Origin: Acidothermus cellulolyticus 11B
GTDB taxonomy: Bacteria > Actinomycetota > Actinomycetes > Acidothermales > Acidothermaceae
NCBI RefSeq assembly: GCF_000015025.1
Contig: NC_008578.1
Span: 2,160,001 to 2,192,000 of the forward strand
Length of the DNA stretch: 32,000 nucleotides
Reading direction: 5' to 3'
Part shown: in pieces, positions 832-32,000 of the stretch
Layout of the letters: each line of letters opens with the position of its first letter
Numbering within the stretch: the stretch's first letter is position 1
Notes under the pieces: generated by a model
What the model was told of the DNA's origin: nothing
What the model saw: the letters and a program-made list of their open reading frames with translations, nothing else
The model's database searches: none
Position numbers and translations under genes: made by a program

Positions 832-856
832 TCCGTCGCAGGCCGCGGCGATGCCG

Positions 857-13692: not shown

Positions 13693-13766
13693 GCGGGCGC
13701 CTTCCGCTGAGCAGAGGTGGTACCAGTGTGCACGGCGCCGGCCGGAACGCGTCGGGAGCTTAGGCT

Positions 13767-16764: not shown

Positions 16765-17970
16765 TTATTCACGCAACGGGGCGCCGGACGCGTCCCACAC
16801 GTTCCCCGTGAAGACGATCGCTCCGTCGGGCGACGCGCGGAAGGAATTCGGTCCATACTGAGCGTGATCACCGTAGCGATTATTCGCGATCGTGATGATG
16901 CCGGAGGAATTGCCTGGGTCGGCCCCGGCGTAGACGGTGTAGGTTCCGCCGTCCAGCAGGCAATCACGAAGCTGGGTGTTGGAGAGATCTCCGAGATCCG
17001 CGCCCATGATGACGGCTGAATTCGTTGGGGCACCGGTGGCGTCTATGGTGTCATGGACGATGAGGAGGTTGCTGCCGCCGGCAGTCTGTACGCCATCCGT
17101 GTGGTCGCCGGGTGCCACCCATAGATCGTGAATCCAGGAGTTCTGGACGACCACATTGTCTCCGGCATCGATCCCATCGGCGGTTCCATGAATATTCACC
17201 GCATCAGCGGTGAAACCGGAACCGCTGATGCCCACGACCGATGGAGTCTGCTTCCCGCCGTCGATCTCGACGTGTGAAATGATCACTCCGTGCACATTGC
17301 CCCGCACGATGATCGCTGCATCGTTGTCGACGTCGCGCACCCGGCTGTTTTTGATCACCACATTGGACGCGGTGACGACGATACTGCCGCGGACGTCCAA
17401 CCCCGTGACAACTTGACCAGGAGTCGAAAGGGTCAAAGATCCGGAGACGCGCAGCGCCGTACCGGGTGGCACACCGGTGTTCGTGCCGTCGGGGTATCCG
17501 CAGGCCGAGGGATGCGGTAGGCAGTTGCGCAGCGGGGAGTCTCCGGTGGTCGGGGAACCGATTGGCGAATCGCCATTGCCGGCGGTCGCGCCCGGGGCGC
17601 TCGTCGGCGGCGCCGGCGACAGCGGTGGCCGTGCGTCCCCACGCGTGACCGGCTGCGTGCTTGTCGCTCGGCCGTGAACCAAGGACGGCGACGGGCTCGA
17701 CGGCGCTCCAGCCGTTGAGCCCGCCGAGGATGCCCTGCTCGTGGCCGATGGCGCCGACCACCGATAACCGTGCGGATGGGTGGTGAGGTGCCGCGGAAAC
17801 GGACGCAGGTCGAACCAGCCGCTGTGACGTTCGGCAGCGGAGGTTTGCGGAGCAATCGATGCCGCCGCGCTACCCGAGGCACCGAGGACTAAGACGACGA
17901 ACAGTGCGAGAAGACGTGCGGGGACCTGGCGCGGACGCCGGTGCTTGGCGCGGTAGTGACGACGTGCCAT
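16765..17970 (-). CDS. Secreted right-handed beta-helix protein, paralog 2
   Basis: 401 aa. Signal peptide ARLLALFVVLVLGASGSAAASIA and a PS-rich linker. The NCLPHPSACGYPDGTNTGV...HVEIDGGKQTPSVVGISGSGFTADAVNIHGTADGIDAGDNVVVQNSWIHDL..GDHTDGVQTAG...NNRY..YGP region is collinear with the C-terminal halves of the 14661-16376 and 18306-19268 products. SD GGGGAGG before the ATG. Confidence 0.7.
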   Translation of the reverse strand: MARRHYRAKHRRPRQVPARLLALFVVLVLGASGSAAASIAPQTSAAERHSGWFDLRPFPRHLTTHPHGYRWSAPSATSRASSAGSTAGAPSSPSPSLVHGRATSTQPVTRGDARPPLSPAPPTSAPGATAGNGDSPIGSPTTGDSPLRNCLPHPSACGYPDGTNTGVPPGTALRVSGSLTLSTPGQVVTGLDVRGSIVVTASNVVIKNSRVRDVDNDAAIIVRGNVHGVIISHVEIDGGKQTPSVVGISGSGFTADAVNIHGTADGIDAGDNVVVQNSWIHDLWVAPGDHTDGVQTAGGSNLLIVHDTIDATGAPTNSAVIMGADLGDLSNTQLRDCLLDGGTYTVYAGADPGNSSGIITIANNRYGDHAQYGPNSFRASPDGAIVFTGNVWDASGAPLRE

Positions 17971-18305: not shown

Positions 18306-19268
18306 CTAACAGCGCAGCGGCGCCCCGGTTGCGTCGTCGACGTTGCCGGACGACTGGATGGTGCGACCCCGGGCGGGTCGCAGGGAACATGGACCGTAAC
18401 GGTAACCCGACCCAAAGCGATTTCCCGAGATTATGATCGACCCCGAGTCGAAGCGGCCTCCCGTGCCGGCGTACACCGTGTAATTCCCGCCTCGCAACAA
18501 ATTGTGTTCGATAATCACCTGGTCAAGAGGTCCCAGATCCGCACCGGTGAGTATCGCAGAATTTGTTGCCGGGCCAAGAGCGTCGATCGTGTTATTGACG
18601 ATGCGCAGACTCCGGCCACCGCTCGACTGGATGCCGTCCGTATGATCACCATCCCATGCTACGAGATCGTGAATCCAGGAATTCTGCACAACCACGTTTG
18701 AACTGGCGTCAATCGCGTCGCCCGTCCCATGAATGTCAGCCGCATCCACGACGAATCCCGATCCAGCGATGCCGACAACCGACGGATTCTGCCGCCCGCC
18801 GTCGATTTCGACATGCACGAGTTCGACGCCAGAGACTCCAGTGTATGGAAGAGAAACCGCAACGGCATTGCCACGCGGGCGGATCAGACAGTCTTCCACG
18901 CGGACACCGGACGCCTTGATGGTTAGCGTTCCGTCAATTTCCAGTGCCGCGAGGCGGGAGCCCGCGGTTGTGATTGTGACGGATCCGACGCGGCGCAGTC
19001 GCGTGCCCGGACGGACTCCCGTCGTTGTCGGACCAGGCATGCCGCAGTAGTCTGCGCGATGCCAGCAATCGTTTGGCGTCCAAGACGGCAACGGCAAGTC
19101 GCTCATTGCGGATACCGCGACGGACTGCGACGGGCCAACCGGCAACGAGCGAGCACCGCTGCATCCAGGCGCAACCGCTACAAGAACAAGTGCGCAACCA
19201 AGGGCACCGGCCCTGCGCGCATGGCGACGCGCCTTCGTTGTTCTCACATTCCACACGCTAACCGTCAA
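18306..19268 (-). CDS. Secreted (possibly lipid-anchored) right-handed beta-helix protein, paralog 3
   Basis: 320 aa. N-terminus RRHARRAGALGCALVLVAVAPGCSG is a signal peptide with a lipobox-like APGC that is not canonical. Beta-helix region CWHRADYCGMPGPTTTGV...HVEIDGGRQNPSVVGIAGSGFVVDAADIHGTGDAIDASSNVVVQNSWIHDL..GDHTDGIQSSG...GNRF..YGP. The ORF-track start is a TTG overlapping the upstream stop (TTGA at 19265-19268). In-frame GTGs a few codons downstream are alternative starts. Confidence 0.7.
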   Translation of the reverse strand: MTVSVWNVRTTKARRHARRAGALGCALVLVAVAPGCSGARSLPVGPSQSVAVSAMSDLPLPSWTPNDCWHRADYCGMPGPTTTGVRPGTRLRRVGSVTITTAGSRLAALEIDGTLTIKASGVRVEDCLIRPRGNAVAVSLPYTGVSGVELVHVEIDGGRQNPSVVGIAGSGFVVDAADIHGTGDAIDASSNVVVQNSWIHDLVAWDGDHTDGIQSSGGRSLRIVNNTIDALGPATNSAILTGADLGPLDQVIIEHNLLRGGNYTVYAGTGGRFDSGSIIISGNRFGSGYRYGPCSLRPARGRTIQSSGNVDDATGAPLRC

Positions 19269-21304
19269 CCACTCAGGGCGACGATGTCATCACGGGAAAT
19301 ACGCGGCGTATCCGGCAGACGGTATGGTCGGTACCGCCTCCGCAGGAAGCCGTCAAGCGTCAGCCATGCCCAGAACACGAGAAACGCCATAACGGCCAGC
19401 GCACGACTTCGATGCGGTACGTCAGCGACAGCACTGACCGGCAAATACTGAGCTTGGACCCGAACAAGCGCGTCTGTCGCCACCGCGTAGCGCTGCTGCC
19501 ATGCGCGCAGCGTCGCATGCGCAGCGTCAACAACGGCGGTCAGCGTCCCGAGCGCCTGCTCGGGCGTGCCGGCCGTCACTCCGATACGCATGAGATTGCC
19601 GGAACCGGTCACGTCGGTCGCCGGCTCAAGACTCCCGTTGCCGACAGCCACCTCGTATTCGCCACGGTGGCCGGATGCGACCAGCGCGCTGCGCTGACTC
19701 TGTGACGTCAGCGATTCGGCAAGCATCGTTGGGAAGTCACCGAGATAGCGGGGGGACGCAAACAGTGTCGTCGCAAGCGTTGCGGTCGGCGGACCACCCG
19801 CCAAGACAAGCGACGCCGTCGCACTGTACCGGACAGGCGCGTGGTGAATCCAGTTAACCCCGCCCAAAAAAGCCAGAAGCGCCAGGATGCCGGCGCCGAT
19901 GCGGGCCGCCACGACGCGAGGGACGAACAGTAAGCGCCTGGCGTACCGAACCTGCCGGTGGCGCGGCCACGGTGAGCGCGGGACGGCGTCCGGTGCATCG
20001 ACGCCGGCAGTCACCGTCATTGGACTTGGCACCAGACGGCTCAGGGCGCCGAGCGCGCCCAGCAGGAGAAAGAGGACAGCCGTGACCATGGGAAACGCGA
20101 AGGCATCGAAGGTAAAGAACGTCACAAGTGCTGCGATCATTGCACTGACCAGTGACAGGGCGACGCTTCGGATTTCCGCGTCGGCGCTGCTGCGGCGTAT
20201 CCGGACTCCGGTCACCGCGCCAAAAAACATGATGCTGAGCAGGGCGGCAAGCCCAAGGAAACCCGCCTCAATCAGCGTTCCCATGTACTGGTTGTCAAGC
20301 GTACGATAGATTTCTGGTATGAACGTAAAGAAACCGCGTCCAATCAGCGGATCTCGCGATATGTAATACCCGGCCGCGGCATAGTCGCCGAGGCGATTCT
20401 GGATGCTCGGATCCTGACCGGCGTGGAGAAAGAACGATCGAATAGTGCCGAGCAACCCAGGAATGGCCAACTTCATTCCGACACCGGCGATCGGCGCGAT
20501 GATGAGCGCGATGACCTTCTGCCGCGCCTGCCAGGAAAAAAACAGAATAATCAGCACGGTGGCCAAGCCCACGATCGCTGAACGCGCCACGGTCATCGGC
20601 ATCGCGACGAGAATAAGGGCGGTACTGATCCGGGCAATCAGCCGCTCCCGCGCTGTGCGGCCGTACATGCTGAAATGAAACGCAACCGGAAGAATCAGTG
20701 TAAGAACGATGCCGAACTCAATGGGGTGGAGCGCTGTCGCCGTTACCCGGCGGAATAGGGATCGCTCGCCTGCCTCACCAAAGGGATGGTTGGCGACAAG
20801 ACCCGGGATGCGTACGATATCGGAAATATTGACCCCGGTGAAGAATTGAAGAATGCCTATCGACGCCACGACGCCGCCCCCGGCGACGAGCCGGAACAAG
20901 AAGCGCTGCAGGGATTCGAGGGAAAGCAGTCCGTCGGCGACGGCGAGAAGCATGCCTGACCACGCCAGGAGTGCAAGGAGTCCACGGTCCGCGGAGCTGA
21001 GCTCCAGTCCGGTAATTGGGCGGAGCATGCCGTGCACGTAGCTCAGCAGCATGACGGCGACAAAGGCGGCCAGCACGAGGTGCGGGATAGTCGGCCGCTG
21101 TCTGGTATGCGCGAGAATGCGCGAAAGCAGCCACCAGATGAGAAAGAGGATCGCGAGAATATCGGCCGGTGTCCCCTGCGCACCAAGCGGCTTTACGATC
21201 AAGGCTGAGGGAACGCCGAGGACGAGAATGATGAGGAGCGTCAGCCACGGCAGAAGATCCTTTCCGTGACGCTCGCCGGTCTGCGTCGCCGTGGCGTCAA
21301 TCAT
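19265..21304 (-). CDS. O-antigen ligase/polymerase-like (Wzy_C-type) polytopic membrane protein fused to a C-terminal Wzz-like module
   Basis: The ORF is open to 21406. The ATG at 21304 (MIDATATQ...) sits 4 nt after the upstream stop and avoids a 98-nt overlap. About 10 or more TM segments. Wzy_C-like motifs are TVARSAIVGLATVLIILFF and LDNQYMGTLIEAGFLGLAALL. The last ~230 aa have a TM (IGAGILALLAFLGGVNWI), then VRYSATASLVLAG, a soluble segment, a TM (ALAVMAFLVFWAWLTLDGF) and RRRYR, which mirrors the two stand-alone Wzz-like proteins. Confidence 0.7.
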   Translation of the reverse strand: MIDATATQTGERHGKDLLPWLTLLIILVLGVPSALIVKPLGAQGTPADILAILFLIWWLLSRILAHTRQRPTIPHLVLAAFVAVMLLSYVHGMLRPITGLELSSADRGLLALLAWSGMLLAVADGLLSLESLQRFLFRLVAGGGVVASIGILQFFTGVNISDIVRIPGLVANHPFGEAGERSLFRRVTATALHPIEFGIVLTLILPVAFHFSMYGRTARERLIARISTALILVAMPMTVARSAIVGLATVLIILFFSWQARQKVIALIIAPIAGVGMKLAIPGLLGTIRSFFLHAGQDPSIQNRLGDYAAAGYYISRDPLIGRGFFTFIPEIYRTLDNQYMGTLIEAGFLGLAALLSIMFFGAVTGVRIRRSSADAEIRSVALSLVSAMIAALVTFFTFDAFAFPMVTAVLFLLLGALGALSRLVPSPMTVTAGVDAPDAVPRSPWPRHRQVRYARRLLFVPRVVAARIGAGILALLAFLGGVNWIHHAPVRYSATASLVLAGGPPTATLATTLFASPRYLGDFPTMLAESLTSQSQRSALVASGHRGEYEVAVGNGSLEPATDVTGSGNLMRIGVTAGTPEQALGTLTAVVDAAHATLRAWQQRYAVATDALVRVQAQYLPVSAVADVPHRSRALAVMAFLVFWAWLTLDGFLRRRYRPYRLPDTPRISRDDIVALSG

Positions 21305-21308
21305 GGCG

Positions 21309-22052
21309 TCAGCCGACGCGAGGGGAGACGCCGGCGCTGACCTCCCCGGAAACGACGCCACCCTCGAAGCCGGGGAGTGTGGGCTCTGCCTCACCGGCGT
21401 GCTCACCTCGATGACGTGCGGACCGGGATCGGCGCTCCAGCCACGCGATGAAGAGCGCTCCTAAGACGATGATCACCGCGCCGACGGCGATCCCGTCCCG
21501 CAGTCTGCTCTTGTTGACCGGATGCGCCGTCGTGTCCTGCGTCAGGAGAGTCGCGCGGATGAGCGTGCCCGAGGGGGCTCCCGCGGCCTGTTGTGCCTGC
21601 TGAAGCTGCCGTTCGAACTCGGCGATCACGAGGCGAAGATCCTTTGCCGCCGCAGCAGGCGTCGGACCGGTCACCGTAACGGCTACGACCGGCGCATTAA
21701 TCGCCGTGATTTCCGTCAGCACATAGGTGCCGACAAAGCCTTGGCTCGCAAGACGCGCGGCAACCTGCTGATCCATCGTCGCAACGGCAATAACCTGACC
21801 GGTCTGCGCCAGGCCGGGCGTCAGCGCCAGGTACGGATTCGCGGCATCACCGCCGACTCCGAGGACCATTGCCGCGGACCGGGCGGTCGGCAGCAGGAGG
21901 ACCTGCCCGGTCATCCGATACGGCGGGGAGACAAGGCGGTAGGTGCCGACCGCACCGACGGCGGCGAGGACGACCACTGCGAGAAGCAAGTACCAACGCC
22001 GCACCATCACGGCGACGACAGATCCGAGCGACAAGGGCAGACTCCTGGACAA
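21309..22052 (-). CDS. Wzz-like (polysaccharide co-polymerase-like) bitopic membrane protein
   Basis: 247 aa. VRRWYLLLAVVVLAAVGAVGTY, then RLVSPPYRMTGQVLLLP, a soluble segment, a TM (IAVGAVIIVLGALFIAWL), then ERRSRSARHR. TTG start in the ORF track, with GGAGAGAG 11-14 nt upstream. The call rests on architecture. Confidence 0.5.
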   Translation of the reverse strand: MSRSLPLSLGSVVAVMVRRWYLLLAVVVLAAVGAVGTYRLVSPPYRMTGQVLLLPTARSAAMVLGVGGDAANPYLALTPGLAQTGQVIAVATMDQQVAARLASQGFVGTYVLTEITAINAPVVAVTVTGPTPAAAAKDLRLVIAEFERQLQQAQQAAGAPSGTLIRATLLTQDTTAHPVNKSRLRDGIAVGAVIIVLGALFIAWLERRSRSARHRGEHAGEAEPTLPGFEGGVVSGEVSAGVSPRVG

Positions 22053-22082: not shown

Positions 22083-23312
22083 TCAGGTCGGTAGCCGCGG
22101 GCGAGCACTAGCTGCGCGCTGCGCACGCGTCTGCGCAGCAGTGGCGCAGCAGTTCAACACATCGGCGGCGCGCGCCTCCCAGGAGTGCCGCGCGGCAAAC
22201 GCACGGCGCCGTTCGGTTGCCGATACGTCGCCCCTGCCCGCGAGAACTTCGGAAACGCGCGCAAGAAACTCAGCATGATCCCGCCCGATCGCGACGAATT
22301 CGCGGTCGAACCATCGCACCGGATAGAGATCCGTGCTGACAACCGGAAGGCCGGCCGCTAGATACTCAAGGAGCTTCAAGGGAAAACTCTGTTGATTGAA
22401 GTCCGATGGCGCATACGGCAGAATCCCAACGTCCATGGCGCCAAAATATGCCGGGAGTCGCTCGAACGGCTGGTTCCCCACCCATTGAACGTTCGGGCGA
22501 GCCACCAGGGCGTCGAACCGCTCGTCATGGCTTCCGCGGTGACGGGGCCCGACGAGCAGGAGTGAATAGCCGGCCTCCGCGATCGCGATGAGGAGGTCGT
22601 AATCGACGCGGCCACCGAGACCGCCGGAATATCCGACAATTGGGCGACGCAGGCGAACGTCCTCGGCGGGGGCAATCCGCCCGACCGCGGCAAACGCCTT
22701 CGCGTCGCATCCGTTCGGAATCAATACGGTTTCTTGCTTGAGGGTCCGCCACGTGTCATAGAGACCCGGTGTGGCGGCGATGACGGCGTCGCACTGCTCC
22801 TGCAGTCTCCGCTCGCCCTTTCGAATCCGCTTTGCCGAAACGCCGAAGAGCTCGGCACCGGCGACAAAGTCATCTTGCACCCAGTAGACATGTACGATGC
22901 CCGGCAATTGACGTGGCGCGGGGCCAAGCGGGCTGGTGTGAATCACGTAGGGACCCGCAAGGTGCAGGCGACGGACCGCTTGGCGGATCCACCGGGTGAC
23001 AAGGAGTCGGGTCAGGTGGACTATGCCTGGACGCTCGGGAAAGGGGGTGACGACCGGGGTGAGCCGCGCGAGACTCGGAGACAGAAGACGTAAGCGCGGC
23101 TTGTCAAGAGCGGGTTGCAATTGCGGCTTGCGGCGGACCGTCCAGCGCGACATGGGCGGATCGACGTAGAGCACAAACGTCTTCTCCGCCAACCGCTCCG
23201 CAAGATGGCGATCAGCGAATTTCGTGTCATCCCAATTGTTTGCAGCAAGAAGAACCACCGGACGGGCCGAATCGGGAACGGCAGGTCCGCCCCTCAGGTT
23301 TGGATTGCTCAC
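22083..23312 (-). CDS. Glycosyltransferase, GT-B fold (GT1/GT4, TuaH-like)
   Basis: 409 aa. IVGYSGGLGGRVDYDLLIAIAEAGYSLLLVGP, NVQWVGNQPFERLPAYFGAMDVGILPY and FPLKLLEYLAAGLPVVSTDL resemble teichuronic-acid TuaH-type glycosyltransferases. Starts 2 nt after the permease stop. Confidence 0.8.
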   Translation of the reverse strand: MSNPNLRGGPAVPDSARPVVLLAANNWDDTKFADRHLAERLAEKTFVLYVDPPMSRWTVRRKPQLQPALDKPRLRLLSPSLARLTPVVTPFPERPGIVHLTRLLVTRWIRQAVRRLHLAGPYVIHTSPLGPAPRQLPGIVHVYWVQDDFVAGAELFGVSAKRIRKGERRLQEQCDAVIAATPGLYDTWRTLKQETVLIPNGCDAKAFAAVGRIAPAEDVRLRRPIVGYSGGLGGRVDYDLLIAIAEAGYSLLLVGPRHRGSHDERFDALVARPNVQWVGNQPFERLPAYFGAMDVGILPYAPSDFNQQSFPLKLLEYLAAGLPVVSTDLYPVRWFDREFVAIGRDHAEFLARVSEVLAGRGDVSATERRRAFAARHSWEARAADVLNCCATAAQTRAQRAASARPRLPT

Positions 23313-23314
23313 GG

Positions 23315-24172
23315 CTACGTTCCGAGAATGCCCATAACTTGCGCGCGGTGCAGAGCGCGCTCAAATACCCAGAGCCCGGTGATAATAGACAGGACCGAGG
23401 CAAGCCCGAGAACGACGAAGGGCAGCCAGAGCGGCATGGCCGTGGCACCGGCATGGGGGGTCAGTAGACTACGCGCTCCACTGATCACGTAGGCTTGCGG
23501 CGCCAAGTAACTCGCCCAGCGTATCGCCGGCGGCAAGACTGTGATCGAAAAGAGTGAGCCGCCGACCAATGCGCCCAGCAATCCGTACACCGCCATTACC
23601 GGCGAGCCCCGCTTGAAGAGGATAAGAAAGCTGGCAGCGAACAATCCCAGGCCATTGGACGCGAGGACGCCGAGCAGCAGAAGCACGAAGAACAATGGCA
23701 GCCCGGAGAAGTCAATTCGACCCCCCAAGGCGCAGCCGATGGCGATGGTGATGAGCGTGATCACGATTCCGACGAACGACTTCCACACGTTCATACCAAG
23801 AGGTATCAGCCGCCAGGAGATCGGCTCGATGAGGTACGTCTCCAAGACACCCCGCTCCTGCGCAAACTGGAGTCGCGTCGTCAAGCCGGTAAGGGCCTCC
23901 TGCAGGCCCGCCGCTACCGCCACTCCGATCAAAATGGACATGTACTGGGACCGGGTATGCAAAAAGATCGACTGGAAATAGTACATGAAGGCAGGTACCA
24001 CCAGCGCGAGATACGCCAGCGCATTGCTCGCCGGAAACATGATCTCTTCAATCACGTCCAACCGCAGGTACGCGGCAAAGAGGTCACGGAGTTTCTGACC
24101 CGTCGTACGACGGGACACGGCGCTCCGCCAGGTCGAATCCGCTTCGTACTCAACGAGATTCATCGTTGTCAT
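23315..24172 (-). CDS. ABC-2 type transporter permease
   Basis: About 6 TM segments, and the size and topology fit ABC-2 permeases. The ORF is open to 24220. ATGs at 24172 and 24163 (preceded by GAGGA) are more likely starts. Either start overlaps the ATPase 3' end by 14-23 nt. Confidence 0.7.
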   Translation of the reverse strand: MTTMNLVEYEADSTWRSAVSRRTTGQKLRDLFAAYLRLDVIEEIMFPASNALAYLALVVPAFMYYFQSIFLHTRSQYMSILIGVAVAAGLQEALTGLTTRLQFAQERGVLETYLIEPISWRLIPLGMNVWKSFVGIVITLITIAIGCALGGRIDFSGLPLFFVLLLLGVLASNGLGLFAASFLILFKRGSPVMAVYGLLGALVGGSLFSITVLPPAIRWASYLAPQAYVISGARSLLTPHAGATAMPLWLPFVVLGLASVLSIITGLWVFERALHRAQVMGILGT

Positions 24173-25193
24173 CCTCGTACGCACTCGCAATAACGTCGCG
24201 CAGCGGAGTGGTGACTTCACCGATCCGGTGAACGCGCGGAAGAAGGGACCCGAGAGTCGCTAACACGTCGCCGACCGCAGTCCGGACGGTAAGCCGGACA
24301 TAAACGTCCCTACCGTCACGATCGACCGTGTTGCCGCTCGCCATCAATTGCTTCTCGGCCTGTCGCGCGGTCGACTCGTGGTCGAAACGAATCTCCACGG
24401 TAGGGACGTCGATGCGCTCGCGGAGATCATCCAGGCTGCCGGAGAAGCGAATGCGGCCGCGATCCATGAGCACGGCATTTGAGCGCAATGCATCAATCTC
24501 TTCCAGGCGATGGGAGGAGAGAAGCACGGCCAGGTTCTCCTGCCGGACCAGTTCCGTCACCAGGTCGAGGAGGCTCTTTGCGGCCAGCGGATCAAGCGCG
24601 CCCGTCGGTTCGTCGAGAAGCAGCACCCGCGGCAAGGGTAGCAGCGCGCGCGCGAGCCGCAGGCGTGCCTTCATCCCGGCCGAAAGGCTGGCGGCGATCG
24701 CATCGCGCTGGGCGGCAAGACCAACCATTTCGAGCACCGTGTCGATGCGTCGCGGCAACAACGGAGGTCGGAGCCCCTGAAGCCGTCCGTGAAGCTGCAA
24801 ATTCTCCCGGCAGGTCGCCCGCATGAGGAGGCTCCGTTCCTCCGCGGACATCCAACCGACAAGTTGGCGGATATCGTCAATCGCCCGCAGCGTGTCGAGA
24901 CCCGCGACCGACACGTTGCCCGACGTCGGTGTGGTCAGGCCGACGACAATGCGGAACATCGTCGTTTTGCCCGCGCCGTTCGGACCTACGACGGCGAGTA
25001 TCTCTCCGAAACGGACGTCAAACGTGACTCCGCGCAGCGCTGCGACCGGCTCCCGAATGGGCGTGCGCGAGAACAGGCGCATCCAACGCGGTTGCGGTGC
25101 ATACACTTTGGTCACGTCGCGGAATGAGACAGCCGCCACGTCAAGACGTGCCGCCTGACCAACTCCGTTGGTTCGAACCGCGTACGCGCTCAT
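24150..25193 (-). CDS. ABC transporter ATP-binding protein (DrrA/ABC-2 type, with a C-terminal accessory domain)
   Basis: Walker A VVGPNGAGKTT, signature LSAGMKARL, Walker B LLLDEPTGALD and H-loop SSHRLEE. The ATG at 25191-25193 overlaps the upstream GT2 stop (ATGA at 25190-25193). The ORF is open to 25247. Confidence 0.9.
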   Translation of the reverse strand: MSAYAVRTNGVGQAARLDVAAVSFRDVTKVYAPQPRWMRLFSRTPIREPVAALRGVTFDVRFGEILAVVGPNGAGKTTMFRIVVGLTTPTSGNVSVAGLDTLRAIDDIRQLVGWMSAEERSLLMRATCRENLQLHGRLQGLRPPLLPRRIDTVLEMVGLAAQRDAIAASLSAGMKARLRLARALLPLPRVLLLDEPTGALDPLAAKSLLDLVTELVRQENLAVLLSSHRLEEIDALRSNAVLMDRGRIRFSGSLDDLRERIDVPTVEIRFDHESTARQAEKQLMASGNTVDRDGRDVYVRLTVRTAVGDVLATLGSLLPRVHRIGEVTTPLRDVIASAYEDDNDESR

Positions 25194-26311
25194 AGCCATC
25201 GCTCGAGAGGACGCCCCAGCGCGTGATACCACTTCCGAAGGTGGCACCGGGCAGTCACGTACCCGGCACGCACTGCCGCACGGGCCGAGCGCGAACCGGA
25301 ATCACGCCTCAGGGCGCGGTAGCGTCGCCAATCGGCCAGCGTGGTGTATTCGACGCCCAGACTCATGACAAACGCAAGATACTCGTCAACATCCTCCGGG
25401 AGACCAAAAACAATGATGTCGCAGGCGTGACTGATCGCCACGCTTGCCAGATGACGGCGCGCCGCTCGGTGCCACTCGTCACTTTCGGGCGGTCGCGCCG
25501 ACCAGGCGGCGAAAAAAGACTCAAGCGCCGCCTGCCGCTGCCTGAGATCGGCGATCTTCTGGCCGTACGTCGTCCGCGCCATACTGGCGGAATGCACGCG
25601 ATAATAGGCTTGTGGGGGTCCAACCAATTGGACAATGCTGCCCTGTGTGGCGACCCGCAGCCACATCTCAAAATCTGCACTATGCGGCAGGTGTGCACTG
25701 TATCCACCGACGCGTCGCTGAACCTCCGAGCGGACGACGACCTCCGGCGATGCGATCGGATCCCAGCCGAGGCGGCAGATCTTCTCGATCCACGCGGTGC
25801 CGTCCATCGTTACCGCACGAATCCGTGATCGGCGCTCTCGGTGCACGCAATCGTCCGGGTCCACGTGGCGGCAAATGGCGACCCGTCCGTAGACCATCGC
25901 GATACCGTCGTCGCTTTCCAGAACGTCTACAGCTCGGCTAAGGCTGCCAGGAGCGAGAAAATCGTCGGCGGAAACAAGTGCGAAGTATTTTCCTCGCAAG
26001 ACGCTGATGCCTTCGTTGTACGTTGCGATGTGCCCCAGATTGATAGCGTGTCGCATAAGGCGCACTCGGGGGTCGGAGTTGGCGAGTTGCTCGGCGACCT
26101 CGGCACTGTCATCCGTCGACGCGTCATCGATGACGAGCACATCGACATCTACGCCGTCCTGACTCAGGATGCTTTTCACACAGCGCGGGAGATACCGGCC
26201 GTAGTTGTAGCAGGGGACCAATACCGTCACAGTCGGCAGACCAGTCCGCTGCCGCCGCGTCCCGCTCACGGTGCGGGTGCTTGGACTTCGCACGTCAACG
26301 AGCTTCGCCAT
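25190..26311 (-). CDS. Glycosyltransferase family 2
   Basis: 373 aa. TVTVLVPCYNYGRYLPRCVKSILSQDGVDVDVLVIDDASTDDS is the GT-A N-terminus with a DxD-type DDAS. FALVSADDF follows. Confidence 0.85.
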   Translation of the reverse strand: MAKLVDVRSPSTRTVSGTRRQRTGLPTVTVLVPCYNYGRYLPRCVKSILSQDGVDVDVLVIDDASTDDSAEVAEQLANSDPRVRLMRHAINLGHIATYNEGISVLRGKYFALVSADDFLAPGSLSRAVDVLESDDGIAMVYGRVAICRHVDPDDCVHRERRSRIRAVTMDGTAWIEKICRLGWDPIASPEVVVRSEVQRRVGGYSAHLPHSADFEMWLRVATQGSIVQLVGPPQAYYRVHSASMARTTYGQKIADLRQRQAALESFFAAWSARPPESDEWHRAARRHLASVAISHACDIIVFGLPEDVDEYLAFVMSLGVEYTTLADWRRYRALRRDSGSRSARAAVRAGYVTARCHLRKWYHALGRPLERWL

Positions 26312-26344: not shown

Positions 26345-29300
26345 TCAGTTGGACGTGAAGACGACATCGACCCAGTAGTTGGTCGCATTGTATGAATCGG
26401 TCGGCATGACCCCACCGCTTCCGTAGCGGTAGACGCCGTTGCCCTGCGCTGCCGGGGACGAGAGCGCAACGAGCGGTCCCGAACTGACGCCGTTGCTCGT
26501 GAAATATCCCGGATCGGCTGCGTAATGGCCGTTCGGCGCGTAGTACGAGGCGACATACACCACCCCCGGCTGAACCGGCACCGGCGCACTGAAGTCAGCC
26601 TCCTGCCAGCCGCTCGCCGTCTCGTTGGTGAACGTCACCGTGGCAAGCAGGTTCCCGTCGGCATCCCACAGACTGCCCGTGTGCGTTCCGTCGTTGCCGG
26701 CTCCCTTGTAGAACCGGATGCCCGTGATGAACCCGGCCTGGGTGGTTTCAAAGCGGAGCCCAAGCTCGACGGAACTGCCTTCGTTGACGGACGCTTGGAC
26801 CGGTACGGTGGCGGCTGACCATATGGAGCACGGACACGGCACAGACGGCGGCGGAGGCGGTGACGCCGTGTAAAGCACGTCCACCCAGTAATTCGTCGCG
26901 TTGTACGTGTTCGTCGGGAAGGCATCGACGGGACTGTAGCTGTAGACGCCGTTACCGCCGACATCCGCTGACGCCGGCGCGACGAGCGGACCCGCCGAGC
27001 GTGCGGCCGCGAAGTAATTCGGCGACGCAACGTAGTGGCCGTTTGGCGCGAAATACGAGGCGACGTACGTTTGTCCGGCTGTCACCGCCACCGGGGTGCT
27101 GAACGTAACGGTCTGCCAGCCGGTCGCAGACTCGTTCGCGAAGGTCGCCCGCGCCAGCAGCTGACCGCTTGCCGTCCACAGGCTTCCGCTGTGCACGCCG
27201 GTATTGTTCGTTGATTTGTAGAAGCGAATACCGGTGATGTACCCATCTGCAGTTGGCGTGAATTTCACACCGACCACAACACTGTTCGGGTCGTTCGCCT
27301 CGCCGGCGTTCGGTTGCAGCGCGGTGGACCAGAGCGAGCATGGACAACCGCTTGGATCGCCCGCTGTCGTGAACGACCACGTGTAGGGCGGTATCGAGAG
27401 GCCGGTGAACGGATCCACCGCCGTCACGTTCACGGTGTACGTGGTACCGGCGCTGAATGGCGCGGCCGGTGTCCACGTGGCCGTGTAGGTGGTCGCGTCG
27501 TACGTGAGCGTGCCGGTCAGGGCCATGCCGGTGTCGGTGACCGTCAGTGCCACCGATGACGGGTCGACCGCGCCGCTGAACGTCAGCGACACCGGTGATG
27601 TCGTGGGTGCGCCGGTCGACCCGGCGGCGGGGCTGACCGTTGCAACGGTTGCGCCGCTGGTCGGCGGTGTGAAGACGACGTCCACCCAGTAATTCGTGGC
27701 GTTGTAGCTGCTCGACGGGAATCCGCCGCCCGTGCTGTAACGGAAGACACCGTTGCCGCCGCTGCCGCCCGAGCTCGGCGCCGTCAGCGGGCCGTTCGAA
27801 TACGCGGCGTTGAAGTACCCGCCCGTTGCGGCGTAATGCCCGTTCGGCGCGTAATACGAGGCGACATAGGTTTGCCCGGCCTTTACCGGCACCGGCGACG
27901 AGAAGACGGCGACCTGCCATCCGGTCGCGCTTTCGTTGGTGAAGGTGACGGACGCGAGCAACGTGCCGTCAGCGGACCACAGATGTCCGACGTGCGTCCC
28001 CGTGTTCCCGTTCCCCTTGTAGAACTTGATGGCGGACACGTAGCCATCTCGGCTGGTCGTGAATTTCACGCCGAGTTCCACACTGCTGGCGTCGTCGACA
28101 GCCGCAACTGCCGGCGCCGCTGACTCGCTCCACAAGGCGCATGGGCACGTCGGCGCCGTCCCGGCAGTGGTGAACGACCACGCGTACGGGTTGGAAGGCA
28201 CCCCATCCGCAGCGGCGGTCGCCTGCACGGTGACGTCGACTACCGAGCCAGCGGGCAGCGCGCTGCTGGGCGTGAAGGTCACGGTGGTGCCGTCGGTGCT
28301 CAACGTCACGATGCCCGATACCGGCGCTCCACTCGCGTCAAGCACCACGGTCACGCTCGGCGAGGTGACCGGTTTGTCAAACGTAATGGTGATTTCCGCC
28401 GTCGGGTCCACATTCGTTGCGCCGGCGGCTGGAGTCGTCGCAACAACCTGCGGGGCCAGCTGCGCGTTGGTGAAAATCGGATCCACCCAGTAATTGCTCG
28501 CTTGATAGGACTGGGACGGAAAAGCGTTCGTCGCAGCATACGTGAATACACCGTTCCCCGGGGTCGCGGCGGCGGTGAGCGGACCCACGGTCAGCGTACC
28601 GGTGAAGAAGTTCGGGGTCGCGGTGTAGTGACCTTGCGGTGCCAGGTAGGAGACGACGTACGTCGTCCCGGCACTCACCGCGACCGGCGTCGCGAAATTG
28701 ACCTGTTGCCAACCGGTCGTCGTCTCGTTGGTGAACGTCGCCGCCGCGAGAAGCTGACCGGCCGCGGTCCACAGGCTTCCCACGTGGGTACCGCCGTTCC
28801 CCACGCCCTTGTAGAACTTCACCCCGGTCACATATCCGTTGACCGCCGGCGTGAAGCGAAGGCCCAGATTGACGCTCAACGAGTCGTTAGCCGGGGCTGC
28901 CGACGGCGTACCCGCCGACGGCCAGAACGAGCATGGGCACGGCGCGGCATTTGTCGTGGTGAACGACCACTGGTAGGGCGCGATCGGGAGTCCGCTCGCC
29001 GCGGCGCGTGCATCAAGCGTGACGGTGTACGGCGTGCCGGCGGCGAGGGGCGTGCTTGGCGTGAAGGTCGCGGTGCGGCTGGCGGTGTCATACGACGTCG
29101 TGCCGTTGATGGTCAGACCATTCTGACTTACCTGGAAGACGACCGAACCGGGGTCGACATCGCCGGTGAAGGTTGCGGTGATCGGATTTGTCGTCGCGGC
29201 ACCGGTCGCACCGTTGGCGGGAGTCACCGCCGAGACCGTGACACTGTGGTCCGGCGTGACGAAGACCACGTCAACCCAGTAGTTCGTGTTGTCGTATGAC

Positions 29301-31702
29301 TGGTTCGGGAAAATCGTGCCTGAGCCGTAGGCGAAAACCCCGTTGCCGCCTATCGCGGGGCCGCTCGGTGCAACGAGCGGCTCGCTGGTGACGCCGGACG
29401 TCTCGAAGTAGAACGGTTGCGCGGCGTAGTGACCGTTCGGCGCGTGGTACGAGGCGATATACGTCTGCCCCGCTTTCACCGCGATGGGCGTGGCGAAAGT
29501 GACCTGCTGCCAGCCGGACGTGGTTTCATTAGTGAACGTCGCCGTCGCCAGCAGTTGGCCTGAGCTGCTCCACAAGCTCCCGACATGCGTTCCCGTGTTG
29601 GTCGACAGCTTGTAGAACCGCACGCCGGTCACGTAACCGTCCTCCGTCGGCTGGAATTTGACCCCGACCTCGACGGACGACGGGTCGCTTTCGGAATAGT
29701 CCGGCGATCCCGCACCCTCGCCGCTGGACGCCGTTATCTGCGGGGGTGGCGGCGGCGCCGACGATGTTGGCCAGATCGTGCACGGGCAGCCGCGGGGCGC
29801 GACGGTGACGATTTCTGTCACCGGCGAGGACGTATTCACCGAGTCATCGGTTGCCCGAACCGCGAGCGTCACCTGCCCCGATGTCGTCGGCGTCCACGTG
29901 TACTGCCAGGACGTCGTTCCTGTCGCGGGGTGCCACGTTTGCCCGCCGTCCACCGACACCTCGACCCCGGCGACCACTCCACCAACGTCACTTGCCGTTC
30001 CGGAAATCGTCACGGGGCTGGCGACCGTCAGGGTGCTCGACGACGTCGGCGACGAAATCGTCACCGTCGGCGGCGTGGTGTCCGTGGATGGCGACGCCGG
30101 CACCAGTCCGCTCATCAGCGTCTGAGGTTGTACGCCCATGTCCGCGAAAAGGTTCACTGTGGCCTGCTGCATGCGCGGGTCGGCAGGCGACGTCGTACCA
30201 TCGTGATCGTCGTCAAGTCCCCACGCCCACTGCACCGTGCCGGCGCCGAAAACGAGCGCCCCGCTCGGTGCCCGATACAAGGTGAGACTGTGGGTGACCG
30301 TGCCCTGCGCCACGGTGTTTCCGTAGTCAATCATTTTCTGTGGGACGGACTCGACGGTTGATGACAAGTCGATGAGGCCGGCGGGTCGGAAGCCGTTGTC
30401 GACATCGGAGTCGAATTCGTATCCGAGGGTGTTGGGCGCCAAGGTCGCGGTCTGACCGGGACCAAGGCTGGCCACCGACGTGTTCCGCCAGATGCGATCC
30501 CTGCTGTACGGGTACGGCACCTGAATGGCGAAGCCGCCGGTATTCGACATGTACATGGTGCCGCTCAACGCATTTTCCGGGTGATACCCGTCACCTTGCG
30601 GATTGATCGGTGGGCCAAAACGCGGGTCCCGCCAGGTGGCGGTGGTCGTCGTCGGTTCCAACGGGTCGATGGGCCCGTTCGCCCAGGTCTCCTTGTAACT
30701 GACCAGCGTGCGGTACGGCGTGTTCGAGCCGTCAACGCTGGGTTCCCACCGAGTCTTCCAATAAATTTCGTTGCCGCTGAAGAAGGCGAGATTGACGCCG
30801 GCGTCGCGGGCCGCTTCGACGTTCGCACGCTGTTCGCCCGACCAGTACTCGTCATGTCCGACCGATAAGAAGATGCGATGGTTGAGGAGCAGGCTGCCGT
30901 TGCGCGCAGTGTCAACGCCGGAAATGTAACTGACGTCGTATCCATTCCGCTCCAGGAAGCGGATCATCGGATATTCGTTGCTGAACAAGTAATCACGGCC
31001 GTCGTTGTCGCCCCGCGTCGAGAACGGCCGATTGTAGCTGATCTTGTATGCCCGGCCGTTGCTCCCGGTGTAGAAGTCCGCACCGCCGTAGGTGTTGTAC
31101 GCCTCCCAGGTGGTGTCCGACGTCTGGAAGACGATGTCGGAGTGGCTCGAGTCGTCGCGGACGACAAAGGGAATCTGACTCTGCCCGCCGGTGTCGGTCC
31201 GGGTGAGAACCGCCAGGTACACCCCGGAGACGGCCGTGGTTGGTACCGTCCAGGAGGCCGAGACGGCCCAGTCTCCGCAGTCGACCAACTGGGTGGCCGG
31301 ATCGGTGATGCAGGCCGGCTGATTCTGCGGCAAGGCCGCCGACGGCGTGATGCTCGCAATCTTGCGCGCTCCGTCGCCGCCATACCAGCCCAGGCGGTAA
31401 ATGTCGATCGTGTATGCGGACGCGTCGGTCGAAATTTTGAAGTACTCGGTCTGGCCGATGTTCACGCTCATGTCGGTGGCGAAACCCTGGATGGTCGGAT
31501 CGCCGACGCCGGTCACGTCCCAGACGCTCTCCGGGGTCCCCGGTTTGGAGTTCTCGCAGACGATCGGGTTGCTCCCCGGTCCGCACGGCGATGTCGCGGC
31601 GGAAGCCGCCGGCTGTGCAGCGAGCAGTCCTCCTGCTGCCAAAGCAGCCGCCGCGAACACCCGCGCCACGTGCAGCGACCTCGTCGTTATCCGCGCCATC
31701 AT
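26345..31702 (-). CDS. Giant secreted multidomain protein: signal peptide, N,N-dimethylformamidase-beta-like domain, Ig-like domain, then 5 x DUF4082 interleaved with 3 Big_5/SbsA-type Ig-like domains
   Basis: 1785 aa. Signal peptide MMARITTRSLHVARVFAAAALAAGGLLAAQPAASA. The N-terminal ~500 aa carry IVCENSKPGTPESVWDV and FLSVGHDEYWSGEQRANVEAARDAGVNLAFFSGNEIYWKTRWE, which I recognise as DMFase large-subunit-like motifs (moderate certainty). Five modules start at CPC[TSA][ILF]W and end at NYWVD. Each contains [LV]G[VL][KR]F.....G[YF][IV][TS][GA][IV][RK]FYK...N.GTH.G.LW...G.LLA..TF.NE...GWQ. The ATG overlaps the DegT stop (ATGA at 31699-31702). Confidence 0.85.
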   Translation of the reverse strand: MMARITTRSLHVARVFAAAALAAGGLLAAQPAASAATSPCGPGSNPIVCENSKPGTPESVWDVTGVGDPTIQGFATDMSVNIGQTEYFKISTDASAYTIDIYRLGWYGGDGARKIASITPSAALPQNQPACITDPATQLVDCGDWAVSASWTVPTTAVSGVYLAVLTRTDTGGQSQIPFVVRDDSSHSDIVFQTSDTTWEAYNTYGGADFYTGSNGRAYKISYNRPFSTRGDNDGRDYLFSNEYPMIRFLERNGYDVSYISGVDTARNGSLLLNHRIFLSVGHDEYWSGEQRANVEAARDAGVNLAFFSGNEIYWKTRWEPSVDGSNTPYRTLVSYKETWANGPIDPLEPTTTTATWRDPRFGPPINPQGDGYHPENALSGTMYMSNTGGFAIQVPYPYSRDRIWRNTSVASLGPGQTATLAPNTLGYEFDSDVDNGFRPAGLIDLSSTVESVPQKMIDYGNTVAQGTVTHSLTLYRAPSGALVFGAGTVQWAWGLDDDHDGTTSPADPRMQQATVNLFADMGVQPQTLMSGLVPASPSTDTTPPTVTISSPTSSSTLTVASPVTISGTASDVGGVVAGVEVSVDGGQTWHPATGTTSWQYTWTPTTSGQVTLAVRATDDSVNTSSPVTEIVTVAPRGCPCTIWPTSSAPPPPPQITASSGEGAGSPDYSESDPSSVEVGVKFQPTEDGYVTGVRFYKLSTNTGTHVGSLWSSSGQLLATATFTNETTSGWQQVTFATPIAVKAGQTYIASYHAPNGHYAAQPFYFETSGVTSEPLVAPSGPAIGGNGVFAYGSGTIFPNQSYDNTNYWVDVVFVTPDHSVTVSAVTPANGATGAATTNPITATFTGDVDPGSVVFQVSQNGLTINGTTSYDTASRTATFTPSTPLAAGTPYTVTLDARAAASGLPIAPYQWSFTTTNAAPCPCSFWPSAGTPSAAPANDSLSVNLGLRFTPAVNGYVTGVKFYKGVGNGGTHVGSLWTAAGQLLAAATFTNETTTGWQQVNFATPVAVSAGTTYVVSYLAPQGHYTATPNFFTGTLTVGPLTAAATPGNGVFTYAATNAFPSQSYQASNYWVDPIFTNAQLAPQVVATTPAAGATNVDPTAEITITFDKPVTSPSVTVVLDASGAPVSGIVTLSTDGTTVTFTPSSALPAGSVVDVTVQATAAADGVPSNPYAWSFTTAGTAPTCPCALWSESAAPAVAAVDDASSVELGVKFTTSRDGYVSAIKFYKGNGNTGTHVGHLWSADGTLLASVTFTNESATGWQVAVFSSPVPVKAGQTYVASYYAPNGHYAATGGYFNAAYSNGPLTAPSSGGSGGNGVFRYSTGGGFPSSSYNATNYWVDVVFTPPTSGATVATVSPAAGSTGAPTTSPVSLTFSGAVDPSSVALTVTDTGMALTGTLTYDATTYTATWTPAAPFSAGTTYTVNVTAVDPFTGLSIPPYTWSFTTAGDPSGCPCSLWSTALQPNAGEANDPNSVVVGVKFTPTADGYITGIRFYKSTNNTGVHSGSLWTASGQLLARATFANESATGWQTVTFSTPVAVTAGQTYVASYFAPNGHYVASPNYFAAARSAGPLVAPASADVGGNGVYSYSPVDAFPTNTYNATNYWVDVLYTASPPPPPSVPCPCSIWSAATVPVQASVNEGSSVELGLRFETTQAGFITGIRFYKGAGNDGTHTGSLWDADGNLLATVTFTNETASGWQEADFSAPVPVQPGVVYVASYYAPNGHYAADPGYFTSNGVSSGPLVALSSPAAQGNGVYRYGSGGVMPTDSYNATNYWVDVVFTSN
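26348..29788 (-). repeat. Intragenic array of five DUF4082-coding modules (~480-530 nt each)
   Basis: Approximate module spans, from the first CPC cysteine codon to the NYWVD end, are 29788-29260, 28939-28468, 28147-27668, 27346-26870 and 26836-26348. Start-to-start spacings are 849, 792, 801 and 510 nt. The first three gaps hold Ig-like domains, and the fourth is only a poly-Pro linker (SPPPPPSVP). DNA-level similarity is partial, but identical stretches occur, for example the 19-mer CGTCCACCCAGTAATTCGT at 26878 and 27679. Confidence 0.85.
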
Positions 31703-32000
31703 CGAACCGCTCCTGTCTCGTGAGCCAACGGCGAGCCATCGCCGGGTGATGTCTCACCGACGGTCAACGCCTCGCGAAGAGTGTCGATGACCACGTCACA
31801 CTGCGACGTCGTCATGCCCGGAAAGATCGGAAGGGAGAGAATCTGCGTCGCCGCCCGCTCCGCGACAGGAAAGTCACCCGCACGATAGCCCAATCCCACA
31901 TACCCGGGTTGCAGGTGCACTGGTATCGGGTAATGCACCGCGGCACCGATACCGGCTCGGTTCAACGCCGCAAGGACGGAGTCACGGCGCGGAATTCGGA
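31699..32000 (-). CDS. DegT/DnrJ/EryC1/StrS-family sugar aminotransferase, C-terminal part (5' end outside the window)
   Basis: The frame is open to the window edge (…RIPRRDSVLAALNRAGIGAAVHYPIPVHLQPGYVGLGYRAGDFPVAERAATQILSLPIFPGMT). HYP.P.H.QP.Y and LSLP..P.(l/m)t are typical C-terminal motifs of this PLP-enzyme family. Confidence 0.8.
   Translation of the reverse strand, partial: RIPRRDSVLAALNRAGIGAAVHYPIPVHLQPGYVGLGYRAGDFPVAERAATQILSLPIFPGMTTSQCDVVIDTLREALTVGETSPGDGSPLAHETGAVR

Follow-up and report, generated by a model that had tools for sequence, protein, structure and literature searches.

What does a very large, apparently secreted protein with an enzyme-like head and a long repetitive tail do in the middle of a gene cluster for a polysaccharide? 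This question is raised by a stretch of 32,000 nucleotides (nt) from the genome of Acidothermus cellulolyticus 11B (NC_008578.1, positions 2,160,001 to 2,192,000; hereafter the window), in which a single open reading frame (ORF) encodes a protein of 1785 amino acids (aa). An initial annotation, made from the sequence alone, described a signal peptide, a domain of ~500 aa resembling the large (beta) subunit of dimethylformamidase (DMFase), an immunoglobulin (Ig)-like domain and five DUF4082 modules, and suggested that the protein binds the glycan made by this locus and processes or scaffolds it. Here we argue that the protein may instead be an exported metal-dependent amidohydrolase, tethered by its DUF4082 modules, which would remove N-acyl groups from the diamino-sugar polymer of its own operon. 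We put the probability of this reading at about 0.4.

The case for an enzyme begins with the head of the protein. In Pfam it belongs to DMFA2_C (PF20254), with E 1.2e-106 in a search with the whole protein and 357.7 bits against a cut-off of 27, over profile positions 1-371 of 374. The family profile was aligned with hhalign to the DMFase large subunit encoded on Methylobacterium plasmid pLVM1, for which the residue numbering was checked (probability 90.8%, 338 columns). The alignment pairs DMFase Y399, Y440, H519, E521 and N547 with Y202, Y211, H283, E285 and N311 of the window protein. In DMFase the ligands of a mononuclear Fe(III) are Y399, Y440 and E521; H519 is indispensable, a buried water is held by N547, and the Y440A, E521A and H519A mutants are inactive (PMC7686228). 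On this residue pairing, the motifs GHDEYW (aa 282-287) and FFSGNEIYW (aa 307-315) of the window protein are the active-site H-x-E and Asn motifs of DMFase. Each of the five positions is kept in 202-203 of 203 sequences, which comprise 82 from genome loci in at least six phyla, 120 database proteins and the window protein itself.

Structural comparison leads to the same relatives. An AlphaFold2 model of the head (aa 36-640, built from a 41-sequence homologue alignment) reached a pLDDT of 86 and a pTM of 0.90. Foldseek matched it in the PDB to N-acetyl-(R)-beta-phenylalanine acylase (8i5a; E 1.6e-16, TMq 0.56) and to the DMFase large subunit (6lvd and 6lvb; E 1.4e-14 and 4.1e-14, root-mean-square deviation 4.7-5.0 over ~460 columns). 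These two proteins are the only strong matches of the catalytic domain, the remainder falling on the Big_7 Ig domain, and a profile search of PDB sequences likewise returns the acylase (E 1e-10) and the DMFase large subunit (E 6e-6). The earlier description of the domain as DMFase-like is thus correct for the fold and understates the likeness, given that all five active-site residues are retained.

At a sequence identity of ~17-26%, the window protein and the large subunit of DMFase from Paracoccus and Methylobacterium (DmfA2; 6LVB; EC 3.5.1.56) have in common an Ig-like domain I and an alpha/beta/alpha domain III, together with the two Tyr and the Glu that bind iron, the essential His and the water-holding Asn. 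What sets the window protein apart from DMFase is a signal peptide, pairs of cysteines and an additional 1,150 residues made up of Ig and DUF4082 modules, as well as its place in a polysaccharide operon, whereas DMFase is found in a methylotrophy or xenobiotic cluster. Because the protein appears to be exported and belongs to a glycan operon, dimethylformamide is an unlikely substrate. The acylase (8HUY, 8I5A), which is the best match both by structure and by sequence profile, shares the QAY and H-x-E-Y motifs with the window protein; its catalytic residues were taken from alignment only. The name under which it was deposited implies that it hydrolyses an N-acetyl amide, as we propose for the window protein, but the named substrate is a small molecule and its chains of ~772-776 residues lack DUF4082 and Big_5.

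Since the only strong structural relatives of the head are amide hydrolases, its predicted chemistry is amide hydrolysis rather than glycan cleavage or scaffolding, and the initial annotation, which put forward a glycan-processing or scaffolding role, is corrected in this respect. Could the conserved site nevertheless carry out a different reaction on a glycan, such as glycosidic or phosphodiester cleavage, a lyase reaction or transfer, so that the protein would be a glycanase or processing enzyme after all? A glycan operon and repeats resembling carbohydrate-binding modules (CBMs) are typical of carbohydrate-active enzymes, and the DMFase core has a ThuA-like/glutamine-amidotransferase-like alpha/beta/alpha arrangement, a scaffold that serves varied chemistry (PMC7686228). 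We nevertheless consider such a role unlikely. The catalytic domain has no glycoside hydrolase, lyase or esterase among its Pfam, NCBIfam, PDB-sequence and Foldseek matches, it keeps the residue set of DMFase exactly, down to the water-holding Asn, and three beta-helix paralogues encoded in the same locus (Table 1) are better glycanase candidates than the 1785-aa protein.

If the head is an amidase, the neighbouring genes suggest what it might act upon. The TGA stop codon of an upstream DegT_DnrJ_EryC1 aminotransferase gene overlaps the ATG of the 1785-aa gene as ATGA, with a GGAG ribosome-binding site 8 nt 5′ of the ATG, and genes for a family 2 glycosyltransferase (GT2), an ATP-binding cassette (ABC) ATPase and an ABC-2 permease follow directly downstream; both the translational coupling and the adjacent exporter had been noticed in the initial annotation. 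The upstream genes are seen in full on a longer contig, L001. The order there is a WbaP/EPS-type phosphoglycosyl transferase, a PseC/ArnB-like aminotransferase, a UDP-GlcNAc 3-dehydrogenase-like GFO oxidoreductase, a GalE/LegB-like short-chain dehydrogenase/reductase (SDR), a NeuD/PglB/VioB N-acetyltransferase, a second aminotransferase and the 1785-aa gene, followed by GT2, a Wzt-like ABC ATPase, an ABC-2 permease, a family 4 glycosyltransferase (GT4), a small protein with two membrane segments, a Wzy_C protein and three beta-helix proteins. From the first aminotransferase to the 1785-aa gene, successive genes overlap by 4 nt or lie 2 nt apart; a gap of 33 nt separates the latter from GT2, after which GT2, ATPase and permease genes overlap by 4 nt and 14 nt (L001 gene calls).

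NCBIfam identifies the L001 neighbours as amino-sugar enzymes, and the operon encodes two PseC/ArnB-like aminotransferases and two NeuD/PglB-type N-acetyltransferases. The Wzm/Wzt-type ABC-2 exporter, the glycosyltransferases, the initiating phosphoglycosyl transferase and the sugar-nucleotide genes are all co-directional (Pfam and NCBIfam, window and L001). Together these genes form one operon-like unit, and the polymer that it makes would be exported by the ABC transporter and contain many N-acetylated amino sugars.

The same genomic setting recurs widely. The neighbour proteins of the window and L001 were compared by tblastn with the 79 best related loci, within 10 kb of each DMFA2_C gene. 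The SDR was found in 45 of the 79 (median identity 67%), the first and second aminotransferases in 40 each (61% and 55%), the GFO dehydrogenase in 39 (63%) and the NeuD-type acetyltransferase in 30 (52%). At least three of these five amino-sugar genes are present in 35 loci, mostly on the same strand in 26 of those 35, and some polysaccharide-type neighbour in 70. By a rough general estimate, only a few per cent of random 20-kb windows would hold a DegT-family gene. The association with amino-sugar genes crosses phyla (e.g. Neoroseomonas, Pirellulales and Acidobacteriaceae), and is frequent, not universal. The glycan link drawn in the initial annotation is therefore made plausible by these neighbours across phyla and by the position of the gene within an operon.

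These observations can be combined into a mechanism. After export by the Sec pathway and cleavage at about A35/A36, the N-terminal region would adopt the fold seen in the DMFase large subunit for domains I and III. By homology, Y202, Y211 and E285 would form a mononuclear 2-Tyr-1-carboxylate metal site; H283 would serve as the essential base in the second shell, and N311 would keep the catalytic water in place. The enzyme would then strip N-acetyl (or other N-acyl) groups off the polymer once the ABC transporter has exported it. We favour N-acyl removal because both characterised relatives hydrolyse small N-acyl amides and because the operon appears to make N-acetylated diamino sugars, as it encodes a UDP-GlcNAc 3-dehydrogenase-like enzyme, two aminotransferases and two N-acetyltransferases. 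The Ig-like spacers and the five DUF4082 beta-sandwiches may act as a multivalent tether and reach-extender that keeps the enzyme on the polymer at the cell surface, and in some lineages a Cys-Pro-Cys (CPC) pair could stiffen the junction between Ig domain and DUF4082.

Several observations weigh against this reading. The DMFase pentraxin domain II (residues 74-337) is absent from the window protein: the hhalign match begins only at DMFase residue 342, opposite aa 139 of the window protein, which has only ~150 residues ahead of its catalytic domain. A tblastn search with the small (alpha) subunit encoded on pLVM1 found nothing better than E 1.8 in the window and 84 related loci, and DMFase requires its small subunit for activity. 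Both characterised relatives, DMFase and the acylase, work in the cytoplasm and on small molecules rather than polymers. The window also encodes a conventional CE4 polysaccharide deacetylase homologue, apparently without a signal peptide (Table 1). None of the five amino-sugar genes lies within 10 kb in 30 of the 79 loci, and one cyanobacterial locus has glycosyltransferases only. The model of the DUF4082 module described below is of only moderate quality (pLDDT 71.6) and resembles solved folds loosely. Finally, searches of the literature turned up no functional work on DUF4082, on DMFA2_C or on proteins of this architecture.

Some of these points would fit an exported DMFase-type amidohydrolase with another substrate, such as peptidoglycan amide bonds, lipid- or protein-linked acyl groups or an environmental N-acyl compound, with the DUF4082 and Ig modules serving for cell-wall retention only. 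Active site and fold would be kept just as in the reading that we favour, and 30 of the 79 loci have no amino-sugar genes of this kind nearby. In one contig (L086) a split homologue has major facilitator superfamily (MFS) and Tricorn_N-like genes as neighbours, and its flanks contain no called gene for a glycosyltransferase or for sugar modification except a cut aminotransferase gene with a weak DegT match at the end of the locus. Furthermore, the head is 55-68% identical across phyla, which suggests a substrate more uniform than strain-specific polysaccharides. This alternative is nonetheless unlikely, as the gene is embedded, with 4-nt overlaps, in the middle of a sugar-nucleotide and export operon, and the same amino-sugar genes adjoin its homologues in Actinomycetota, Acetobacteraceae, Planctomycetota and Acidobacteriota.

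De-N-acylation of the operon's own polymer would also require that the protein leaves the cell. The predicted signal peptide is followed by a region in which conserved cysteines occur in pairs (C40/C49 and C131/C142); these are the only cysteines outside the CPC motifs, so that all 14 cysteines of the protein are paired. A simple heuristic, rather than a dedicated signal-peptide predictor, assigned a signal-peptide-like N-terminus (basic, then hydrophobic) to 76 of 96 full-length homologues. From these N-termini and from the pairing of all cysteines we infer export by the Sec pathway.

Beyond the head, the protein is a long modular array. A search with the whole protein returned Big_7, three Big_5 and five DUF4082 (PF13313) matches, the last with E 3.7e-273, and a piecewise Pfam scan gave E values of 1e-55 to 3e-58 for the five DUF4082 modules and 2.5e-14 to 1.5e-18 for the three Big_5 domains. 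Each DUF4082 module scores 187-196 bits against a cut-off of 28.4. Big_5 domains fill the first three gaps between modules and a proline-rich segment (TASPPPPPSVP) the fourth. There are exactly five CPC motifs (aa 639, 922, 1186, 1453 and 1623) and five NYWVD motifs (aa 807, 1070, 1337, 1604 and 1775), which open and close the modules, and module 1 has a 16-residue insertion after its CPC cap. Every element of the initial observation on the sequence, from signal peptide to the last module, is borne out in this way by Pfam, translation and motif search, apart from the reach of the CPC "invariance".

Two sets of weak matches from this part of the protein were rejected as functional leads. Searched with phmmer against PDB sequences, the whole protein gave only weak CopC and Ig-like matches. 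The CopC matches reflect similarity to the Big_5 fold (21-30 bits, near the 23.3-bit cut-off, versus 54-68 bits for Big_5 over these segments) and are no evidence of copper binding; weak matches to sulfite oxidase, Mo-co_dimer and SoxC are all confined to the Big_7 Ig domain.

The length of the array raises the possibility that the protein is a non-catalytic surface adhesin or S-layer-like scaffold, with the DMFase-like domain as a structural or binding head. A long series of Ig-like and beta-sandwich domains does resemble adhesins and S-layer proteins; Foldseek matches the Big_7 region to Ig and fibronectin-III-like modules (TM up to 0.86), including Ig modules of S-layer proteins and adhesins; and the DMFase small subunit is absent from the window and related loci. 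Yet the near-complete conservation of the five catalytic positions, together with the conservation of the head across phyla, points to enzymatic constraint, and the C-terminus, read from the translation, is without a sorting or anchor motif. A purely structural role is therefore very improbable.

The assignment of a binding role to the DUF4082 modules is reasonable on structural grounds. An AlphaFold2 model of module 3, built from an alignment of the six DUF4082 modules of the window, is an all-beta sandwich (pTM 0.75). Foldseek matches it to PHR domains (3gbw, 3no8; TMq 0.47-0.53), CBM35 (2w3j, 2w46), CBM6 (8j3x) and beta-sandwiches of phage capsids and baseplates, with TMq of 0.34-0.57 among the matches listed and 0.45-0.57 for the best six; PHR domains score 0.43-0.53 versus ~0.34-0.37 for CBM35 and CBM6. 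A DUF4082 profile found only chance matches to WD-repeat designer proteins among PDB sequences, with no sequence-level relative of solved structure. DUF4082 is repeated in the 1785-aa protein and also fused to a beta-helix protein in the same locus; the partner catalytic domain in the 1785-aa protein is not a recognised carbohydrate-active enzyme. Because the modelled beta-sandwich lies near CBM35 and CBM6 and the module recurs on beta-helix proteins of the same loci, a binding function is plausible. Binding to the polymer of this locus, as proposed initially, would be compatible with both observations.

The sixth DUF4082 module of the window, reported in the initial annotation to lack the CPC cap, is on the beta-helix protein encoded at 14661-16376 (aa 54-193; E 3.3e-48, 163.7 bits), which has no Cys before aa 315. 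This protein consists of an N-terminal DUF4082 module, a Ser/Pro/Thr-rich linker of ~110 residues and a weak Beta_helix match, and is the only one of the three paralogues with DUF4082. A Sphaerisporangium homologue with DUF4082 and C-terminal domain in the same order gives a firmer Beta_helix match (E 1.7e-11). The paralogues have no sequence relatives in the PDB, and homologues of the trio accompany the DMFA2_C gene in 18-21 of the 79 loci. A protein-database search with the CPC-less module found 5 proteins.

The CPC motif sits 7-9 residues upstream of the start of the Pfam DUF4082 model. Among 306 modules of related loci, the junction has the consensus C-P-C-[ST]-[LIV]-[FW]-x5-P, in which [ST]-[LIV]-[FW] and the Pro are nearly universal, and the two cysteines, which occur in 180 and 182 modules, are otherwise both missing. 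CPC is found in most or all modules of homologues from Actinomycetota, Chloroflexia and Acidobacteria, and in none of those from alphaproteobacterial, planctomycete and cyanobacterial homologues or of stand-alone DUF4082/beta-helix proteins. The motif opens all five modules here as had been stated, but it is a lineage-specific feature and no invariant of DUF4082. Judged by its absence from whole lineages, it cannot be needed for the core function of DUF4082. The cysteines come and go together, in keeping with the proposal of a disulfide or metal site, and no module contains a further cysteine, so the pair must act alone. A strained local disulfide, a metal clip and a bridge from one module or molecule to another are all conceivable; most probably each pair makes a local disulfide (or metal clip) ahead of its module.

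The window protein belongs to a very large family. A search of a word-indexed protein database with the head domain found more than 5,195 proteins, the best 120 listed being 59-67% identical and bearing generic names only. An exhaustive HMMER search of 1.84 billion cluster representatives (50% identity) returned 10,228 clusters at a threshold of E <= 1e-3, and 3,416 when this was tightened to E <= 1e-30; many representatives run to 1-3 thousand residues, and among those listed the head keeps 51-68% identity with the query. The family is represented in Actinomycetota, Alphaproteobacteria, Planctomycetota, Acidobacteriota, Chloroflexota and Cyanobacteriota. Its usual architectures comprise DMFA2_C, Big_7 and DUF4082 (~800 aa) or the same plus Big_5 and DUF4082 (~1,060 aa). 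In the 79 best loci the proteins carry between 1 and 6 DUF4082 modules, most often 3-4; five modules are at the upper end, not unique. In some relatives (e.g. P0257, P0264 and P0348) the head is preceded by 1,300-2,200 residues in a protein of 2,300-2,800 residues, so domain order is not fixed across the family. Some genomes contain two DMFA2_C/DUF4082 copies (Saccharothrix obliqua, contigs L010 and L021; also L029 and L072). One Saccharothrix copy lies inside an amino-sugar cluster and the other is without such neighbours; in a planctomycete and in Bradyrhizobium, the two copies are adjacent.

As a sequence, the window protein is one more member of a large, catalogued and uncharacterised family; as a mechanism, it would be a variant of the DMFase/acylase kind. 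Extending the argument to the whole family is more tentative. Its ~10,000 clusters at 50% identity may represent a class of exported 2-Tyr-1-carboxylate metallo-amidases that edit N-acylated amino-sugar polysaccharides outside the cell, and the stock from which the xenobiotic-degrading DMFase arose. The same tentative extension would make DUF4082 a new family of CBMs with CPC as a lineage-specific redox or disulfide hinge, and would add a second route to polysaccharide de-N-acetylation beside that of carbohydrate esterase family 4 (CE4). The CE4 enzymes PgaB, IcaB, PelA and Agd3 are metal-dependent, operon-encoded de-N-acetylases that partly de-N-acetylate an amino-sugar polymer after its export, and in CE4-dependent systems this step controls charge, adhesion, biofilm formation and immune evasion. 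PgaB, IcaB and Agd3 would thus be functional analogues of the window protein on an unrelated fold; the likeness is one of working mode, not of family membership, and Pfam finds no Polysacc_deac_1 (NodB) domain in the 1785-aa protein.

An intact DMFase residue set in thousands of apparently exported proteins tied to amino-sugar polysaccharide loci points to a probable natural role and origin for this fold. If the amidase reading is true, a new enzyme family takes part in the tailoring of polysaccharides after export, and DUF4082 gains a function. The hypothesis is cheap to test, since A. cellulolyticus is a cultivable thermophile whose proteins, according to the literature, express well.

Table 1. 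Coordinates of the 1785-aa gene, its encoded domains and selected neighbouring genes (positions in the window)
Feature	Position	Strand	Basis or remark
Whole coding sequence	26345..31702	-	1785 aa plus stop; ORF list and translation
Signal peptide, aa 1-35 (MMARITTRSLHVARVFAAAALAAGGLLAAQPAASA, predicted cleavage before A)	31598..31702	-	Sec-type, without twin-arginine motif; read from sequence
Catalytic region, aa 36-540	30083..31597	-	N-terminal beta-sandwich (= DMFase domain I) and alpha/beta/alpha DMFA2_C, aa 98-499
Span of five predicted active-site residues	30770..31099	-	Alignment to DMFase
Y202 codon	31097-31099	-	
Y211 codon	31070-31072	-	
H283 codon	30854-30856	-	
E285 codon	30848-30850	-	
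N311 codon	30770-30772	-	
Big_7 Ig-like domain, aa 545-615	29858..30070	-	Pfam E 9.9e-11
DUF4082 module 1 with CPC cap, aa 639-815	29258..29788	-	Pfam E 1.7e-57
Big_5 spacer 1, ~aa 820-916	28955..29245	-	Pfam E 9.2e-18
DUF4082 module 2 with CPC cap, aa 922-1078	28469..28939	-	Pfam E 1.6e-55
Big_5 spacer 2, aa 1083-1179	28166..28456	-	Pfam E 1.5e-18
DUF4082 module 3 with CPC cap, aa 1186-1345	27668..28147	-	Pfam E 2.9e-58; module used for modelling
Big_5 spacer 3, ~aa 1350-1446	27365..27655	-	Pfam E 2.5e-14
DUF4082 module 4 with CPC cap, aa 1453-1612	26867..27346	-	Pfam E 1.2e-55
Poly-Pro linker, aa 1613-1622 (ASPPPPPSVP)	26837..26866	-	Translation
DUF4082 module 5 with CPC cap, aa 1623-1785	26348..26836	-	Pfam E 9.3e-58
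Upstream DegT/PseC-like sugar aminotransferase, 3′ end	31699..32000	-	Pfam E 4.9e-15; full gene on L001
GT2	25190-26311	-	Pfam, maximal ORF; directly downstream
Wzt-like ABC ATPase	24150-25247	-	Pfam, maximal ORF
ABC-2 permease	23315-24220	-	Pfam, maximal ORF
GT4	22083-23312	-	Pfam, maximal ORF
Three tandem beta-helix paralogues	18306-19268, 16765-17970, 14661-16376	-	BLASTP 53% and 47% identity over ~270 aa
CE4 polysaccharide deacetylase homologue	6737-7489	+	E 1.4e-29; among GT4 genes; sole Polysacc_deac_1 in the window

The reading frame itself is sound. The same gene call with an identical 1785-aa product was found on 16 Logan contigs from public runs (SRR110778xx); five of the 16 places are listed, each from a separate run, and all are short-read assemblies. 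A repeat search of the DNA gave five copies with spacings of 510, 801, 792 and 801 nt, in agreement with the reported periodicity of ~800 nt. The copies are only 64-70% identical, which argues for old duplications and makes an assembly artefact unlikely; the number of modules does not collapse in any of these separate assemblies. Tandem Repeats Finder reported no repeats in the locus because the period exceeds 500 nt and the copies have diverged to this extent.

Some gene calls on L001 are shorter than the maximal ORFs of the window (22083-25247 and 18306-21406): the ATPase has 347 versus 365 aa, the permease 282 versus 301, the Wzy_C protein 679 versus 713 and a beta-helix protein 244 versus 320. 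The true starts probably lie downstream of the first in-frame start codon, which gives the 4-nt and 14-nt overlaps for ATPase and permease. The large Wzy_C O-antigen ligase/polymerase-like membrane protein (19265-21406, minus strand) shares the locus with a Wzm/Wzt exporter, a mix of two routes of export and assembly, and could be a ligase that attaches the polymer. Next to it, the 247-aa product of 21309-22052 (minus strand) has no Pfam match; with a hydrophobic segment near each end and a loop of ~150 residues, it recalls Wzz-type chain-length regulators.

Further along, an MFS transporter and a 351-aa PD40/Tricorn_N-like protein (11372-13842, minus strand) adjoin the DUF4082 genes. The same pair stands by the split DMFA2_C/DUF4082 genes of the unrelated contig L086 (15138-17467), and homologues of the 351-aa protein occur in 7 of the 79 loci. 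An 843-aa ORF at 851-3382 (plus strand) is antisense to mfd (857-4435, minus strand), has no Pfam match and is almost certainly a spurious high-GC frame. The Mfd protein itself shares 79% identity with that of a metagenome-assembled Acidothermus sp. genome and 72-74% with proteins of Acidothermaceae. Between 18001 and 24000, GC content falls to 0.60 in several 1-kb bins, versus ~0.65 elsewhere, and AT skew is strongly positive over the membrane-protein genes; this composition is typical of variable surface-polysaccharide regions and may reflect horizontal acquisition.

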